Source of the DNA: an uncultured Acidobacteriota bacterium
Lineage (GTDB): Bacteria; Acidobacteriota; Thermoanaerobaculia; Multivoradales; UBA5704
Assembly: GCA_963700145.1 (NCBI GenBank)
Contig: OY969474.1
Location: 1,344,001-1,408,000, forward strand
Direction: 5' to 3'
Length of the DNA stretch: 64,000 bases
A program made the translations under genes and the position numbers. Below, one piece after another: positions 14,590 through 41,889 of this stretch; the first letter of the stretch is position 1; every line of letters starts with the position of its first letter. Under the pieces are notes generated by a model that was given only the letters and a program-made list of their open reading frames with translations, was not told the origin of the DNA and did no database searches.

Positions 14590-16048
14590 GGGGTTGTCCC
14601 TCCCGCTGTTGAAAGAGCAATGAGGTGAAGGCGGCTCCTCGGCCCACCTGATCGAGAATCGGGTTGGTCGAATAACCGGCCCCGCCAGGGGGCCAAGGAG
14701 CCGTGATGAAGACGAGAGCAGAAAGGCGGGTGGTGTGGCAAGGGGGCCGTGCGGCGCGCATCAGCCACGGGCTACAAGCGCTGCTGCGGCCGATGGTCGA
14801 GGGCATCGAGGCCAGCCGCCAGGGGCTGCTGGAGCTGTTTCACGCCGCGGGCGTCGAGGCCCTGGGGCGGCAGCTCGCGGACGAGGTCGAGGCCGTCGTC
14901 GGTCCGAAGCGTCGGCGCAATCCGACCCGCGAGGCGTACCGCTGGGGCTCGACGGCGAGCGAGTTCGTGCTGGGTGGCCGCCAGGTGGCGCTGCCGCGAC
15001 CGCGCGTCCGGCGACGCGACGGTGGCGAGATGAGCTTGCCTTCGGTGCGCGCCTTTCAGGACGAAGATCCCTTCACGGAGCGGGTGATCGAGCAGGCGCT
15101 GGTCGGCGTCTCGCAGCGCCGCTACGGTCGGAGCTTGGAGCCGCTCGCAGAGTCGGTGCCGGAGCGCGCGACGAGCAAGAGTGCGGTCCAGCGCCGGCTG
15201 GTGGCGGGGACGCGTCGTCTGCTGGGCGCGTGGCTGCGCCGAGACCTGTCGGACTTCCAGCCCCTGATCCTGATGATCGACGGGCTGGAGGTGGCCGGCC
15301 ACACCCTGGTGGTGGCACTCGGCATCGCGCGCGACGGGACCAAGCGGGTGCTCGGCCTGCGTGAAGGCGCGACGGAGAACGCGGCGCTCTGTACCGGCCT
15401 GCTCCAGGAGCTGTTGGAGCGAGGCCTCGCGATGCCGCCGCGCTTCTTGGCGGTGCTCGACGGCGGCAAGGGGCTGCGCAAGGCCGTGCGCGCCGTCTTC
15501 GGGGACGCAACCCACGTCCAGCGCTGCCAGCTCCACAAGCGCCGCAACGTCCGCGACCACCTGCCCAAGCAGCTCCAAGCCCGGGTCGACCGCCTGATGG
15601 TCGAGGCCTACCAGAGCGCTCGCTTCGACCTCGCCAAGCGTCGCCTCGAGCAGCTTGCCCGCTGGCTCGAGCACGCAGGCCACGCGGGCGCCGCGGGCAG
15701 CCTGCGCGAGGGCCTCGACGAGACCCTCACCGCCTTGCGGCTGAAGCTGCCCGACGCTCTGCGCCGGTTGCTCGCCTCGACCAACGCGATCGAGAACACG
15801 ATCGGCTCGATCCGTACGACGACGCGCAACGTCAAGCGCTGGCGCGGCGGCGACATGGTGCTGCGCTGGGTCGCCCTGGCGCTGTGTGACGCGGAGGCTG
15901 GCTTCCGGCGTGTCAAGGGACATCGGCACCTCGGGGCTCTCGAGCTCGCGCTCGCGGCGATCGAGGAACCGACGAACACCAAGGCCGTGGCATGATCAAC
16001 CGAGCCGCTTTCCCTCTTTCGGCTTTCAACAGGGAACGGGGCATCCCC
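14590..16048 (+). mobile_element. IS256-family insertion sequence
   Basis: Imperfect 36-bp terminal IRs (ggggttgtccctcccgctgttgaaagagcaatgagg vs reverse complement of right end ggggatgccccgttccctgttgaaagccgaaagagg, ~26/36). No target-site duplication visible. Confidence 0.9.
14703..15995 (+). CDS. IS256 family DDE transposase
   Basis: LMIDG, AVLDGGKG, QRCQLHK (CxxH), TNAIE catalytic motifs. Confidence 0.93.
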   Translation: MMKTRAERRVVWQGGRAARISHGLQALLRPMVEGIEASRQGLLELFHAAGVEALGRQLADEVEAVVGPKRRRNPTREAYRWGSTASEFVLGGRQVALPRPRVRRRDGGEMSLPSVRAFQDEDPFTERVIEQALVGVSQRRYGRSLEPLAESVPERATSKSAVQRRLVAGTRRLLGAWLRRDLSDFQPLILMIDGLEVAGHTLVVALGIARDGTKRVLGLREGATENAALCTGLLQELLERGLAMPPRFLAVLDGGKGLRKAVRAVFGDATHVQRCQLHKRRNVRDHLPKQLQARVDRLMVEAYQSARFDLAKRRLEQLARWLEHAGHAGAAGSLREGLDETLTALRLKLPDALRRLLASTNAIENTIGSIRTTTRNVKRWRGGDMVLRWVALALCDAEAGFRRVKGHRHLGALELALAAIEEPTNTKAVA

Positions 16049-24329: not shown

Positions 24330-24668
24330 TCAGAGCGCGAGGAAAAACACCCGGCCGGCGACCGCATCGCTCGAATAGGAGGCATGGAGAGCGCGGAGGG
24401 CGCGCACCCACCCGCCGATGCTGACCCGGTCCTGCGCCGAGAAGGCAATCCCCGCGTGCTCCATCCCTTCCGCAGCGAGGCGCAGAAAGTCTTGGTCGTG
24501 GGTGCAGAGCACGCGGCTCATCGCGGCCGCGCGCCGGAGGTGATTCGGATCGTCGGCCCCGAGCAGACCCAGCTCCCGCACCGAGAGCGCATCGATGCCC
24601 GAGAGACGGAGCTGCCGGGCAACCTCCGTGGGGACGTTCTCGTCGAGGTAGAAGCTGAGCGCGCTCAA
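24330..24668 (-). CDS. DUF5615 PIN-like toxin
   Basis: FYLDENVP, ADDPNHL, RVLCTHDQDF, HAGI. Confidence 0.88.
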   Translation of the reverse strand: MSALSFYLDENVPTEVARQLRLSGIDALSVRELGLLGADDPNHLRRAAAMSRVLCTHDQDFLRLAAEGMEHAGIAFSAQDRVSIGGWVRALRALHASYSSDAVAGRVFFLAL

Positions 24669-24967
24669 AGAGACGCGGCGCGCCCCTGGGCGGCGAGGCG
24701 CCGGCGGAGGATCTCAGCCTCCTCCGCGTTCGCGCGAATCTCCGCGTCGATCTCCCCCTTATGCTGGTAGTAGTAGGAGAGCGCGGCGTGCACGCGCGCC
24801 AAGTCGAGCTCGAACTGGACGGAGAGCTGCTCGGCCGTCAGCCCGGCGAACGTGTGGTAGGCGGCCAAGTCGGAAACGCGCAGCGTGGTCCCGGCGATCA
24901 CGGGCCGGCCATCGCGGACGGCGGGATCGCTGACGACGGATTCGATCGGGAGCACGCGGGCTGCCAT
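24665..24967 (-). CDS. DUF433 antitoxin
   Basis: 100 aa: DPAVRDGRPVIAGTTLRV...LARVHAALSYY. Confidence 0.9.
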   Translation of the reverse strand: MAARVLPIESVVSDPAVRDGRPVIAGTTLRVSDLAAYHTFAGLTAEQLSVQFELDLARVHAALSYYYQHKGEIDAEIRANAEEAEILRRRLAAQGRAASL

Positions 24968-33228: not shown

Positions 33229-33270
33229 GACTGCCCATGCTACGACATCGCGCCGAGGATTCCGGGGCGG

Positions 33271-36200
33271 CTACTTCCCCTTGAGGGCCTTCCCACGACC
33301 CCGAGAGCGGGCGGGCGCCTTCTCTTTGCCACGCTGCGCGGGCGCTTTGCCCTTGCGGCGCGCCGCAGGACTCTTGCCTCCCCCGCGCGGTTTGCGCTGC
33401 TTCCCCGAAGCGGCAGGCGCGCCGCCGTAGACGGTCAGCAGCGCCTCCAGCGCCTCGCGGCCTTCGGCGGTCATCGTCTCGACCAGCTGAGTGGTGCACT
33501 GCGGGCAGAAGCGGAGCGGTCCGGCGATACAGCGGGGGTCGTGCTCGCGGTTGAAGTAGAGCGGGCAGTCCTTGGGACCGCGATGGTGCGGCCCGCAGGG
33601 GGCGAGGGAGCAGACGACGAGGTTGGCGAGGGCGCGTTCGAGCGGCAGGTGCGGCGGCTGCAGCGCCTCCTCATATCCGGCGAGCGAGATGAGAAGAATC
33701 CGCCCGTTCTCGCCCTCGTTGTCCCAGCAAACCAGGTCCCGCCATTTCCTGTCGCCGAAGCGGAAGGTCGTGATGCAGAAGAGATAGTCGAGACCGAGCT
33801 GCGCCGGCCGGTCGCGCAGCCGCTCCCCCACCTGTTCGGCATAGAGGTATCCAGGTGCGTCGCTCGCGTCGGTGTCGCGGGTGAGACGCCACGTGCCCAG
33901 CGGGGCGGTCAGGTCGACGATCTCGAACTCATACTCCGGCTGGGCCTCCTCGAGGCGTTGCGCGATCGCCCGCAGCCCCGGAATCGCGTGGTTCACGTCC
34001 CAAAGGCCCGCGCGCTTGCGCCGCAAGCGCCCCCGCCGCCCGCGGCGGCCCACCACCGGCGCGGCGGTTGCGGCCACTACGGCCGCGGCGACGCTCGGCT
34101 TCTCCGCCGACGGCTTGCAGAGCCGCTCGCACGGGTTCTGCGCGAAGACGACCGGCACCGCCCAGTCGATCGCTTCGCCGCTGATCGAGTAGTTGACCGC
34201 GACGCGCGCCTCGCGCGCCGCGTCCCCGATCGTGGCGCCGCGCGCCAGCGCCCAGTAGAAGTGCTGGGCGAAGGCGGTGGCCGACGGGTCGAGCACCTTG
34301 TACTGGTTGCCGACCACGGCCGGGACGCCGCCGGCCACCAAACCGGGCGCGACGCCGCTGTTGAAGTCGTTCTGCCCGCCGGAGCCGGTCTCGCAGGCAT
34401 TGAGAAAGATCAGCCGCAGCCCGCGCCGGCAAAGGATCTGCCGCAGGTTTCCGGTGTCCACTCTCGACTTGCCGCCGCGGTCGTCCTCGAACAGCAGGAA
34501 CCCCTCGTCGTTCTCGCGGTCGTACTCGCCGTGGCCGATGAAGTGGAGGATGTCGAAGGGAACGCCCGCGAGCTGCGCGTGCAGCAGGCGCTTGTGGAGG
34601 GTCTCGGGGGTCGTCTCTCGCGCCACCTCGTAGGTGATCAGGCCGGCCTCGCTCAGCCCACGGAAGCCGCGGCCCACGAGCTCGATCTCCTCTTCCACCG
34701 ACAGCGCGCCGCTGCCGATCGGCTGCGCCGCCACCGCCAGGATGCGCAGCGGCGCCGGGCGCGGCGCGATGTAGTCCGCAGGGATTGCCGTCTGCACGTT
34801 GCGGACGAAGTTGATCTCCTCCGTCGCCAAGAACGTCTTGCGCTGCGGATCGAAGGCGAACTCCCAGGGGAGGGCCGCGATCCAGGGGATCATCGAAGTG
34901 AGGACGATGTCGAGGCGGCCCCCCTCGCGACTCGAGCGGACCTCGTCGTAGAGGCGCTGCACCTGTTCCGGGAAGAGCGTGGCGAAGAGCAACTCGCCGA
35001 CGCCGCGCAGCTCCTGGTCGCCGGGGAGCTCCGGGGCGCCGTGGACCCCGTCGACGTAAGCACGGACCCCGCGGTCGAAGTTAATGATGTCCTGGAAACG
35101 CTGTCCGGCCTCTTCGACCGCGGTGGGCACGACCTCAGCTCGGCGTCGCTTCCCTTTCCCGGTGTGGAAGGGGGCCATGACGCGGGCGTTGCGGTACGTT
35201 GCCAGGAGCTGCGCCGCCTTCACCCCGGGGTCGTCGGGGCGCGCCAGGATGAAGAGCTGAAGGGCGTCGCGGGGCCAGGCGGAGCCGTCATCGGCGGCGG
35301 CTTCGCGGCGCCGCGCTACCGGTGCCGGCGCCGCAGCCGGTGCCGGTGCCGGTGCCGGTGCCGCGGGTCGGTCCGGTGGCGGGGGCTCGGCCGCAGGAGC
35401 GAGCGCCCGCCGGAACCGGCCGCGGAACGGGAGCTCCCGCGCAGGGTCGAGCGGCGGCAGGCCCGAGGCGCGGCCTTCGAGCGCCCGAATCACGAAGTCC
35501 ACCGACGCCGGTTGCGCGAGGAGGTTGAGGTGATGGATCCGGTCGCCCGCCAAATTGCCGCCGGGTCCGTAGCAACCGATCCGCTCCCCCTGGAGCAGAT
35601 CGCCATTCCCACCGCCGACGCTCCAGCCGCCGGCGCTCGGGACGACGAGGTCGTTGGCGCCGGCGAAGAAGCCGTCGACGCCGGCGTCCAGCAGGCGGGG
35701 TCCCAGGTCGCCGGGCTCGAAGTTGGCGGCGAGCGCCGCCAGCGTTCCCGGCGGCGGTCCCGGCGGCCCTTGAATTCCTGAGATCGCGGCGCCCGCCGGG
35801 TCCATCGCGGCGAGACCCGGCAGCCCGCCCACCACCCGCTGGGCGATCCAGTTGAGCCCTTCCGCCACGAACTCCGCGCCGAGCGTGAACGGGTTGTCTG
35901 GGAAGAGGTCGATCAGGTTCGCCACCCAGCCCACCGTGTCGTCCCAGCGCTCGGCGGAGGCCAGCGGCGTCCCCTGGTTCGGCACCGCGCCCAGCACGGC
36001 GCGGCCGAGCTCGAAGCGGCGCGCCCCCAGCCCCAGCTCCCCGCGGCGCTCCAGCAGGGTGCGCAGCACGAGCCCGCCGCGCGAGTGGGTGACCACGTCG
36101 AAACGCGTCGGCCGGTCGGGAAGCCCGTCGAGGAGGAGGCGCGCGTTCTCCTCCAGATCGGCGCTCACCGTGAAGTGGTTGAAGCCGAAGATGCGGTCGC

Positions 36201-36909
36201 CGTACGTGCTCTTCGCCCAGTCGAGGAAGGTGCGGCCGTCCGCGGCGCGTGCCGCGGCCAGCTTGCCGAAGGCCCCCTCGGTGGTGGAGAAGGTGCCGTG
36301 GAGGAGCAGCAGGTTGCGCTCGCCGAAAGCCTTCCCGCCCTTGACGGGTGCGAGCTGACCGCTGCCGTCCAGCGCGGCGCGCAGGCTCTCGGCGGTGATC
36401 GCCACCCAGCCCAGGCGGCCGCGGAGCCGGCGCTCCTCCCAGCGGCGGGCGAGGCGCTGGAGCGCCCACCCCGCGACCTTCTCAAGTGCCTTGAAGACGA
36501 CGAGGCGCACCACCCGGCTCACGATCCCGCGCCGCGCGACCGGCCCGGCGCCGCGCACCGGCACGTGGAAGCGCGTCACGCCTCCGCGCGCGGCACCGCG
36601 CCGGCCGCTGACCGTCTGCGGCGGGTGGAGAGTGATCGCGCCGGAGGCGTGGCGCGCGAGGAGGACGAGCGCCTCCCCCGGCGCGGTCGGGACCTCGATG
36701 GTGACGGCGGCCTCCGCCGCCCGCCGGCCCGAGGAGGTCGCGGTCCGCTCGGCGGCGACCTCGACCTGGCCGGTCGCGACGAGCTGCGCGACGAGAGGGT
36801 CTTCGCCCGCAACGGAACCGCCCCCCGCCGCGCTCCGCCGGCGGCCCTGATCGGAGGGGGACAAGGTCCAGCCCGGATCGACTGAGCGAATGGATCGGCG
36901 TTCCGGCAT
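33271..36909 (-). CDS. Multidomain alpha/beta-hydrolase + CHAT (caspase-like) protease protein
   Basis: LLLHGTFS, VTHSRGG, NDLVVP, HH (lipase-like); LPWE, LHFIGHG, FLNACET (CHAT dyad); C-terminal Cys/His cluster. Confidence 0.88.
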   Translation of the reverse strand: MPERRSIRSVDPGWTLSPSDQGRRRSAAGGGSVAGEDPLVAQLVATGQVEVAAERTATSSGRRAAEAAVTIEVPTAPGEALVLLARHASGAITLHPPQTVSGRRGAARGGVTRFHVPVRGAGPVARRGIVSRVVRLVVFKALEKVAGWALQRLARRWEERRLRGRLGWVAITAESLRAALDGSGQLAPVKGGKAFGERNLLLLHGTFSTTEGAFGKLAAARAADGRTFLDWAKSTYGDRIFGFNHFTVSADLEENARLLLDGLPDRPTRFDVVTHSRGGLVLRTLLERRGELGLGARRFELGRAVLGAVPNQGTPLASAERWDDTVGWVANLIDLFPDNPFTLGAEFVAEGLNWIAQRVVGGLPGLAAMDPAGAAISGIQGPPGPPPGTLAALAANFEPGDLGPRLLDAGVDGFFAGANDLVVPSAGGWSVGGGNGDLLQGERIGCYGPGGNLAGDRIHHLNLLAQPASVDFVIRALEGRASGLPPLDPARELPFRGRFRRALAPAAEPPPPDRPAAPAPAPAPAAAPAPVARRREAAADDGSAWPRDALQLFILARPDDPGVKAAQLLATYRNARVMAPFHTGKGKRRRAEVVPTAVEEAGQRFQDIINFDRGVRAYVDGVHGAPELPGDQELRGVGELLFATLFPEQVQRLYDEVRSSREGGRLDIVLTSMIPWIAALPWEFAFDPQRKTFLATEEINFVRNVQTAIPADYIAPRPAPLRILAVAAQPIGSGALSVEEEIELVGRGFRGLSEAGLITYEVARETTPETLHKRLLHAQLAGVPFDILHFIGHGEYDRENDEGFLLFEDDRGGKSRVDTGNLRQILCRRGLRLIFLNACETGSGGQNDFNSGVAPGLVAGGVPAVVGNQYKVLDPSATAFAQHFYWALARGATIGDAAREARVAVNYSISGEAIDWAVPVVFAQNPCERLCKPSAEKPSVAAAVVAATAAPVVGRRGRRGRLRRKRAGLWDVNHAIPGLRAIAQRLEEAQPEYEFEIVDLTAPLGTWRLTRDTDASDAPGYLYAEQVGERLRDRPAQLGLDYLFCITTFRFGDRKWRDLVCWDNEGENGRILLISLAGYEEALQPPHLPLERALANLVVCSLAPCGPHHRGPKDCPLYFNREHDPRCIAGPLRFCPQCTTQLVETMTAEGREALEALLTVYGGAPAASGKQRKPRGGGKSPAARRKGKAPAQRGKEKAPARSRGRGKALKGK

Positions 36910-36953
36910 TTACGTGCCTCCCTGAGGATAGACGAACGCCGGCGAAGAACTCC

Positions 36954-37799
36954 TCACGCCATGACGGCGAGCAACGCGAAGAAGGGGTCGGCGAGTCGCG
37001 GATCGCCGGCGATCTCCGCCCGACCGCGCGCCTCCATTCCCGGCATCCCCTTGGTGAGGAGCAGCCAGGCCGGCTCTTCGTCGAGGGCGACGGCAGCGGC
37101 GGGCTCGGGCTCGGCGCCTTTCAGGAGCTGCCAGGCGCCGGCTTCGCGGCGCAGGGTGTAGTCGTAGGTGCGGGCGCCGTGGATCGCGACGGCGACGGCC
37201 GTGCCGTCCGGCGCGGCGACGTCGCGGTAGCGGTGCGGGAGGCCGCGGAGGAAGGTGTCGAAGATCGCCTCGGAGGTCTCCGGGTCGGCGAGCGGCGGGG
37301 CGCCGACGGCGAGGCGGATCTGCTGCTGGTGGTGCCAGCGCTCGGTCAGCTCGCGGGCGACGTCGAACCAGCTCGGCGAGCGCGTCGCGCCGGCCCAGGC
37401 GACGGGCACGCCGTCGGCCCAGGGGTCCAGGCCCGCCAGGTGCGCGGCAAGCTGCGGCTCGACCCACTCGAGGAGATCGGTGAGGAGGCGCGGGCTCAGG
37501 CGCCGCGCCGCCGCCACCCACTCGGCGTTGAGGCCGTCGAGGAGGCGCAGCAGCTCGCCGTAAACGTCGATCCGCCCGAACGGCGGGGTGTGGCCGTCGC
37601 GGCCGAGCGACAGGCGGCGGCAGGCGGTGTCGAGGAGGTGCGCCGCGACGTCGCCGACCGACCAGGCCGGGCAGACGGTGGGCCGGCGCCACGCGGCGGC
37701 GTCGAGCGAGCGCAGGAGGGTGACAAGCTCGCGGCCGAGCGGCGGGAAGAGGTGGGCGACGAGCGTCGGCGCCAGCGGCGCCGGGCGGCCGGGGGTCAT
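36954..37799 (-). CDS. Maleylpyruvate isomerase N-terminal/DinB-like metalloprotein
   Basis: PTVCPAWSVGDVAAHL, ERWHHQQQIR. Confidence 0.85.
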   Translation of the reverse strand: MTPGRPAPLAPTLVAHLFPPLGRELVTLLRSLDAAAWRRPTVCPAWSVGDVAAHLLDTACRRLSLGRDGHTPPFGRIDVYGELLRLLDGLNAEWVAAARRLSPRLLTDLLEWVEPQLAAHLAGLDPWADGVPVAWAGATRSPSWFDVARELTERWHHQQQIRLAVGAPPLADPETSEAIFDTFLRGLPHRYRDVAAPDGTAVAVAIHGARTYDYTLRREAGAWQLLKGAEPEPAAAVALDEEPAWLLLTKGMPGMEARGRAEIAGDPRLADPFFALLAVMA

Positions 37800-41036: not shown

Positions 41037-41474
41037 GTGACCTCGACGCCGGTCCAGACAGCCCGCGATCTCGCCGAGCGGGCAGCTCGCGCTCTCGCCG
41101 CCGACCCGCAGGTGCGCTTGGTCTTCCTCTTCGGCTCGGCCGCCGATCCGGACGTTGCGGAGGTCGGAGACGTCGACCTGGCGGTCTGGACCGAGCCGCC
41201 CCTCAGCGCGCGGGAGCTGCTCGATCTGCGGACTGCGCTCGTGCAGGCCGTAGGCGGCCCGCTCGATGTCGTCTCCCTCAACCGCGCGCCGATCGTCCTC
41301 GCGTGGGAGGTGGCCGAGCACGGAATCTGTCTCCATGCCGCACCGCCGGAGACAGAGACCGAGTTCGTGACCCGTGCGCGGGCTCGCTACTGGGACTTCA
41401 AGCCTTTCCTCGAGGTCCAGTGGCGGTATGCAGGCGAGCGCCAGGCGGCGCGCCGGCATGGTCCTCAAGCCTGA
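41037..41474 (+). CDS. MNT antitoxin (MntA-like)
   Basis: VFLFGSAA...GDVDLAV...LDVVSLNRAP. Confidence 0.88.
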   Translation: MTSTPVQTARDLAERAARALAADPQVRLVFLFGSAADPDVAEVGDVDLAVWTEPPLSARELLDLRTALVQAVGGPLDVVSLNRAPIVLAWEVAEHGICLHAAPPETETEFVTRARARYWDFKPFLEVQWRYAGERQAARRHGPQA

Positions 41475-41889
41475 GTCGATCCGCTCGCGCCTCCTGAACC
41501 TCGAGGAGGTGTCCTCGCGCCTGGAGCAGGTGGGGCCGCTCAGCGCCGACCGCCTCGCCGCGAGCTTCCGCGACGCCTGGGTCGCGGAGCGCGGGCTGCA
41601 GCTCGGAGCCGAGATCATCCTCGACGTCGGCAATCACATCCTGAGCGCGTACTTCGGCGTCAGCGCCGAGGACCACGAGGCAGTGGTCACGCTGCTGGGC
41701 CGGCACGGAGTGATCGAGGAAGACTTGCGCGCGCGTCTCGCCGGCCTGGGTGGGTTCCGCAACATCCTTGTGCACGACTACCTGCGCATCGACCCCGAGC
41801 TGGTCGCCGAGAGCCTCGCGCGAGCGCCGCGCGACTTCTCGGACTTCGCCATCGCGATCCGACGCTGGCTGGAAGGCGCGGGGCGCTAG
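41458..41889 (+). CDS. HEPN/DUF86 RNase toxin (HepT-like)
   Basis: GFRNILVHDY (RX4HXY) motif; overlaps the MNT gene. Confidence 0.9.
   Translation: MVLKPESIRSRLLNLEEVSSRLEQVGPLSADRLAASFRDAWVAERGLQLGAEIILDVGNHILSAYFGVSAEDHEAVVTLLGRHGVIEEDLRARLAGLGGFRNILVHDYLRIDPELVAESLARAPRDFSDFAIAIRRWLEGAGR

Follow-up and report, generated by a model that had tools for sequence, protein, structure and literature searches.

Effectors gated by proteases are being studied actively in bacterial immunity, and to our knowledge most CHAT proteins lack an assigned substrate, cut site or trigger. The closest described system is the LcCaspase/LcHydrolase pair, a two-gene module in which a C14-type caspase cuts a 296-amino-acid (aa) alpha/beta-hydrolase with an AHSLG motif at conserved sites between Arg and Gly. 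The cuts (R73 and R117) fall within the hydrolase, and E. coli is killed by the resulting fragments (Evans et al., bioRxiv 10.1101/2025.11.14.688446). An earlier paper had predicted a module of this type (Kaur et al. 2020, PMC7159879). We identified a one-gene counterpart in a 64,000-nucleotide stretch of DNA (contig OY969474.1, positions 1,344,001 to 1,408,000; hereafter the window) from an uncultured Acidobacteriota bacterium. An open reading frame (ORF) at window positions 33271-36909 on the minus strand encodes a 1212-aa protein (P0001) in which a caspase-like CHAT protease is fused to a lipase-like hydrolase, and conserved dibasic motifs in its pro-domain and linkers make it quite likely that the protein processes itself. 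It is an undescribed variant of protease-gated effector modules.

Like LcCaspase/LcHydrolase, the protein joins a clan CD cysteine protease to an alpha/beta-hydrolase and shows Arg followed by Gly at several predicted cuts, and the hydrolase chain carries conserved Arg-then-small-residue sites, as in the Evans module. The separate C14-type caspase that cuts inside a hydrolase of ~300 aa has no counterpart here. Instead, one gene encodes a CHAT domain, a DUF7379 hydrolase with a THSRGG motif and a dead zincin tail, and its sites are dibasic (RR) and predicted in a separate pro-domain and in linkers, outside the hydrolase core; the two hydrolases were compared by eye, without alignment. Csx29 (the TPR-CHAT protein of Craspase), SAVED-CHAT and separase have in common with it a pseudo-CHAT plus active CHAT fold and a His-Cys dyad, but here the presumed substrate lies within the same chain. 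The protein contains no TPR or SAVED domain, and neither a TPR sensor with Cas7-11 nor a gasdermin substrate was found in it, in the ten window ORFs scanned (which gave no Cas or gasdermin match) or in the recurring neighbour clusters scanned. The protein is predicted to work like a caspase/hydrolase zymogen module yet falls outside that module, and outside Craspase, gasdermin systems and active archaemetzincins. A literature search, with most subscription journals outside it, found no publication on DUF7379 or on the present architecture, and none that joins a CHAT domain and an archaemetzincin. The features of the gene are as follows.

33271..36909, minus strand: whole gene, 1212 aa; pro-domain, DUF7379 hydrolase, pseudo-CHAT and CHAT, dead archaemetzincin fold, basic tail.
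36325..36909, minus strand: N-terminal beta-rich pro-domain, aa 1-195, with four RR-G/A/S motifs (predicted cleavage sites).
36526..36534, minus strand: site 4, R126-R127-G128, a predicted cut followed by a hydrophobic segment; the best conserved site (44/46).
35455..36324, minus strand: alpha/beta-hydrolase DUF7379, aa 196-485, triad S276/D420/H460, PlaB-like (from Pfam, alignment and fold).
35275..35454, minus strand: Pro/Ala linker, aa 486-545, which begins with predicted site 5, R500-R501-A502; predicted local distance difference test (pLDDT) score below 50 at 498-546.
34765..35274, minus strand: pseudo-CHAT lobe, aa 546-715, as in Csx29 and separase (from structural alignment).
34120..34764, minus strand: active CHAT lobe, aa 716-930, dyad H793/C839 (from Pfam and alignment).
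34018..34119, minus strand: linker with predicted site 6, RRG at 955 and 958, ahead of the tail domain (RR[GAS] in 42/46).
33430..34017, minus strand: catalytically dead archaemetzincin-fold domain, aa 965-1160 (from model, fold search and alignment).
33235..36957, no strand: variable slot flanked by a sulfatase gene and an MDMPI-family gene; in relatives it is empty or filled by toxin-antitoxin pairs.

The domain content had largely been read from the letters in a first-pass annotation, and that reading held up. The hydrolase motifs THSRGG, NDLVV and IHH are present, and Pfam places DUF7379 at residues 200-378 (E 1.9e-41); the CHAT domain with HFIGHG and LNAC matches Pfam CHAT (PF12770) at residues 638-919 (E 5.5e-29, 102 bits against a cut-off of 24). 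The Pro/Ala linker, the archaemetzincin-like tail without HExxH and the absence of a signal peptide were likewise borne out. No hydrophobic N-terminal stretch occurs in the query or in 119/119 homologues, and secretion by Sec or Tat was rejected on this ground. The same annotation overlooked the 195-aa pro-domain, the predicted RR-G/A/S cut code, the astacin cargo swap and the linkage of the hydrolase family to CHAT and caspase proteases.

We scored 7994 candidates and recovered 365 homologues of the 1212-aa protein. With the exception of one 99% twin, the best 120 share 43-53% identity in the best local alignment, mostly over at least 90% of the length. In an alignment of the query and 119 homologues (A2, 120 sequences), S276, D420, H460, H793 and C839 are each invariant (120/120). 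A Lys/Arg-rich tail (1161-1212) extends past the end of the family consensus. A model of residues 1-1165 reached a mean pLDDT of 83 but a predicted template modelling score of 0.57, so the single domains are reliable and their mutual arrangement is not. Searches for a sigma-70 promoter and a terminator returned no match, and a search for RNA holders listed none.

The proposal of self-cleavage starts from six RR-G/A/S motifs, in which two arginines precede Gly, Ala or Ser. Motif statistics were taken over 46 sequences (reduced to <70% identity), with composition shuffles as control. Four of the motifs lie in the pro-domain (R24-R25-S26, R62-R63-A64, R103-R104-G105 and R126-R127-G128) and are kept in 40/45, 38/45, 40/46 and 44/46 non-redundant homologues, respectively. 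The fifth, after the hydrolase, reads RR[GAS] in 31/46 and R[GAS] in 45/46, and the sixth precedes the tail domain. Across the 120 sequences RRG is present 578 times, where 77 would be expected. The RR[GAS] excess falls in the pro-domain (180 observed, 31.2 in shuffles), the linker after the hydrolase (33 against 7.6) and the linker before the tail (52 against 10.5); no excess over shuffles was found in the hydrolase (13 against 15.3), the pseudo-CHAT lobe (11 against 15.9) or the zincin (11 against 10.9). Sites 1, 3, 4 and 5 lie within segments of pLDDT<50 in the query model. The pro-domain itself has no Pfam match; its best ESM Atlas score was 0.80, a lead only.

These motifs match the cut site, between Arg and Gly, of the published caspase-activated hydrolase. 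Bacterial caspases with Arg at P1 (bioRxiv 10.1101/2024.10.24.620036) and separase cleavage after Arg (PMC11506125) have also been described. The conservation of the motifs makes Arg-specific cleavage by this CHAT domain quite likely. CHAT would cut after the second Arg of the six motifs. Cleavage would strip off an inhibitory pro-domain and detach the dead zincin; the PlaB-like hydrolase set free would begin at G128 with a new hydrophobic N-terminus. Once released, this enzyme would probably act on the lipids of its own cell and bring about death or dormancy. The steps differ in strength: it is probable that loss of the pro-domain activates the hydrolase, and a toxic or defensive outcome is an even call. 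For the complete chain, a latent self-processing zymogen that ends in a toxic conflict role, the balance is also about even.

A relationship to known lipases is suggested by the hydrolase fold. The domain has the fold and the Ser-Asp-His triad of a DUF7379 alpha/beta-hydrolase. The best fold match of the model is Legionella PlaB (6zth; Z 18.8, root-mean-square deviation (rmsd) 3.5, 251 residues aligned), whose THSTGG lines up with THSRGG of the query. The two share 14% identity (251/470 residues aligned), and here the hydrolase is fused to a protease and has a pro-domain in front. The likeness in fold and motif makes a phospholipid substrate plausible, with the chances evenly divided, and membrane damage is what the PlaB fold, taken alone, would suggest.

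Stand-alone relatives of the pro-hydrolase connect the same enzyme to proteases encoded nearby. These ~490-aa proteins were collected from metagenome sequences (best 80 of 538), and 57 of their loci had at least 600 bp upstream, several being near-duplicates. A CHAT gene lies directly upstream in 38/57 loci, and in a further 14/57 a caspase or CHAT is joined to the hydrolase by fusion or encoded next to it (two twins among them had no scan of their own), which brings loci with a fused or adjoining CHAT or caspase to 52/57. Of the rest, four are truncated at contig ends or too short for a call, and in one (L186) no protease was detected. Some loci include CHAT-STAND-WD40 or TCAD7 proteins, in line with the caspase/hydrolase pairing that PMC7159879 predicts for conflict systems.

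The predicted cut site is also conserved in these relatives. In a set reduced to 70 sequences, 65/68 members retain the site-4 Arg, and the position after it holds Gly, Ser or Ala in 67/68; the preceding residue varies (T, Q, S, D or E). In L186 and L112 no protease neighbour was detected, and the site-4 motif is absent as well. P0174, a 1685-aa WD40-fused protein, has Gly for the hydrolase Ser and has lost all pro-domain R[GAS] motifs with its CHAT dyad intact. These are three cases, not a statistic. We make no claim of a general link between loss of the Ser and loss of the motifs: of 21 members flagged as lacking the nucleophile, 13 are settled, 12 as THSRGA and one (P0174) as a true loss.

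In the protease part, the model of residues 543-934 matches Csx29 (7y9x, Z 22.4), separase (5fc2, Z 20.9) and SAVED-CHAT (Z 19.8), which indicates a pseudo-CHAT lobe plus an active lobe; the active lobe aligns with SAVED-CHAT 8tl0 (E 8.7e-10) and carries the His-Cys dyad on a caspase fold.

We identified a second type of cargo on the same protease unit. GTDB loci were counted among the best 80 of 202; 55 of them encode the hydrolase (five as split ORFs), 20 an astacin-like domain, and 5 are cut off N-terminally. In the astacin forms a HExxHxxGxxH domain takes the place of the hydrolase on the same pseudo-CHAT/CHAT/tail unit, and the Pfam astacin match of L056 is above cut-off. All 20/20 have a Cys within a propeptide of ~45 aa and a Met-turn-like S[IV]MCY. 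The propeptide ends with RR-G/A/S in 18/20, KRG in one and REG in one. The Cys-containing propeptide recalls myroilysin, for which latency by a cysteine switch is known (PMC9848320); the astacin forms differ from it in showing no signal peptide by eye and in being fused to a presumed activating protease. An SGNH lipase gene flanks 12/20 astacin loci but no hydrolase locus, and RR-G/A/S stands just ahead of the catalytic GDSW in 11/12 of these lipases. The motif recurs ahead of three unrelated catalytic folds. On a FastTree phylogeny of the common CHAT-tail unit (74 rows, incomplete rows left out), the hydrolase label needs three changes, two of them forced by well-supported branches. The tree is unrooted, and we read it solely as a sign that hydrolase and astacin were probably exchanged more than once, with no order claimed. 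In L065 (1-14671) and L055 (984-12123), astacin-type genes cluster with a patatin, an Avs1a/LmuA-like MBL, another CHAT, an amidase and an SGNH lipase (in L055 also AbiEi/AbiEii), so that several protease-gated effectors stand together.

The six linker sites, the swap that keeps the site and the near-obligate CHAT/caspase linkage together give strong comparative support to self-cleavage that releases a lipase-like enzyme. The first-pass annotation had proposed such a release, and this part of it now stands on evidence that is comparative in kind. The family offers a candidate cut code with six named sites plus natural cargo swaps, and would give DUF7379 a function in a family carried by Nitrospira, a widely studied nitrifier.

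The C-terminal domain is a fold relative of the archaemetzincins. Modelled alone (pLDDT 95.5), it matches archaemetzincin 2x7m with Z 14.7 and an rmsd of 3.1 A over 167 residues (Foldseek E 1e-6), and three archaemetzincins (2x7m, 3zvs, 3lmc; Z 13.1-14.7) rank ahead of other metzincins. With AmzA it has in common the fold, the third zinc His and part of the Cys cluster. The HExxHxxGxxH motif of M54 is lacking, and HExxH occurs in 0/120 tails; an active archaemetzincin was rejected for this reason, and we treat the tail as a fold relative rather than an active member. H1108 (44/46), C1115 (45/46) and C1138 (42/46) are conserved; 28/46 sequences have Cys at position 1135 and 13/46 have Asp. Archaemetzincins (M54) have a four-Cys structural zinc site, and H1108, C1115, C/D1135 and C1138 may form a comparable one. 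Sequence searches with the tail against Pfam and PDB gave no match. The tail search listed another 147 proteins. In all the longer ones that match the tail profile, the tail stands behind this CHAT; the others are short pieces, apart from one long protein that did not match the profile.

This obligate link to one CHAT clade, together with the conserved RR site before the tail, supports a role of the tail as lock or sensor, a guess to which we give somewhat less than an even chance. If it is true, it would be a new control mode for a caspase-like protease. Inactive zincin-like domains are mentioned for other conflict effectors in PMC8195603. A bolder and unlikely extension is that CHAT and the dead archaemetzincin form a portable, self-contained activation engine, in which the zincin, as bait or lock, senses an invader protein and the RR-G/A/S code (cut after the second Arg) arms interchangeable cargo. 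With similarly small probability, this cargo would be a PlaB-like phospholipase, a cysteine-switch astacin or an adjoining SGNH lipase. A portable engine of this kind would parallel a caspase cascade in one bacterial gene, the pseudo-metalloprotease serving as receptor.

The gene is distributed patchily across phyla. Among the best 80 of 202 loci, its closest GTDB relatives are in Thermoanaerobaculia (Acidobacteriota), and other hosts include Nitrospira, Verrucomicrobia, Proteobacteria, Planctomycetota and Gemmatimonas. The tail domain was found in 7/92 genomes of the family (6/56 high-quality genomes; G003 was missed because its contig ends), and the gene in 35/201 genomes of the Nitrospira family. 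The slot it occupies is variable. The congener G004 has only 17 bp separating the two flanks; the slot of G001 is filled by DUF433 plus DUF5615, and G003 has the gene. The source assembly (G000, C1:1-40415) contains a second, inverted copy of the region, within the window and upstream of it, at ~89-96% identity (93% for the slot region), in which the slot holds a small ORF and a PemK toxin. This copy may stem from a related population that was merged into the assembly, or from an old duplication. A relative on the megaplasmid of Ruegeria pomeroyi DSS-3 (L204:7851-14655) consists of pro-domain, hydrolase and CHAT, and is followed by a long PtuA-like ATPase and PtuB (Septu-like), with IS5 upstream. 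A plasmid search returned 4 records, none covering 80%.

Several observations weigh against a self-processing toxic zymogen. The first concern the motifs and the sample. The homologue set was picked by similarity to the query and its related sequences are not independent. The active CHAT lobe is also enriched in RR[GAS] (35 against 14.9 in shuffles), so some such motifs are not linker sites, and a seventh candidate near residue 590 was rejected since it is kept in only 4/46. The RR motifs could instead be basic patches for membrane or nucleic acid on an intact multi-enzyme whose CHAT cuts an unrelated target. Arg-rich linkers are usual in GC-rich genomes, and RRG also stands at structural positions within CHAT. 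Yet composition was controlled by the shuffles, what distant relatives keep is just one Arg followed by a small residue, the mark of a protease site and not of a charge patch, and the motif precedes three unrelated catalytic folds. We consider basic patches very improbable.

Second, 16 CHAT matches, 15 of which pass the Pfam cut-off, were counted in the source genome, mostly in ORFs of ~1000 aa or longer; this makes cutting by another protease possible. The RR sites might be cut in trans by another Arg-specific CHAT, caspase or clostripain, and this cut would then switch on the protein's own CHAT in mid-cascade. Two-protease cascades are known (SAVED-CHAT to PCaspase), many stand-alone loci have two proteases, and a clostripain-family gene lies directly upstream in L003 (1298-2533) and L005 (3-1361; Pfam was run on the L005 member). 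Against this, the gene enters its variable slot alone, no second protease is a regular neighbour across the GTDB loci, and the protein's own CHAT dyad is invariant. Cutting in trans is an account to which we assign a low probability.

Third, the Ruegeria relative lacks the zincin tail altogether and keeps the pro-domain arginines, which shows that the tail is dispensable for the hydrolase-CHAT pair. Finally, evidence for conflict around the gene is mixed. No recognisable sensor domain was found in the protein, and the window neighbours are mostly housekeeping genes (sulfatase, MDMPI family, haemolysin III family, ABC permease, LolA). A PADLOC scan of 65 hand-picked near neighbours in 33 loci, which has no genome-wide baseline, gave matches at E<=1e-25 for 6/65 neighbours in 3/33 loci. 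In Nitrospira the same downstream neighbour recurs in 25 of the 80 loci, which looks like vertical retention. Self-processing may thus be routine maturation of a non-toxic lipase or protease (in stress, the envelope, lipid turnover or scheduled lysis) rather than a phage-triggered switch. Beyond the scarce defence neighbours, the stable Nitrospira position and the missing sensor, this account is favoured by the astacin form, which resembles an ordinary propeptide-latent zymogen (PMC9848320). However, the 119 homologues lack a signal peptide, and a phospholipase or astacin left unguarded would thus be active in the cytoplasm; in addition, the distribution across phyla is patchy, the slot is common to toxin-antitoxin pairs, and relatives adjoin Septu, MBL, patatin and STAND-WD40 genes. 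Routine maturation is unlikely. The conflict or defence role put forward in the first-pass annotation is plausible: patchiness, the toxin-antitoxin slot and the Septu-linked relative speak for it, and the few PADLOC loci and Nitrospira synteny against.

Several further features lie near the gene or its relatives. Within 9 kb of the gene, one on either side, the window contains a DUF433 antitoxin-like ORF (24668-24940, minus strand) and an MNT/HepT pair (41037-41889, plus strand). A 1459-bp piece of the window (14590-16048) is 100% identical to C1:18253-19711 and is possibly an insertion sequence. A patatin lies upstream in L010 (4548-8261) and L011. In 14 loci, nearly all from Nitrospira, the opposite strand carries phage-tail-like genes for sheath, tube and baseplate several kb upstream (for example L016:2379-3980, L031:5677-6201 and L017:1751-2494); other Nitrospira loci are without them. 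We take these genes to be extracellular contractile injection system (eCIS)-like.

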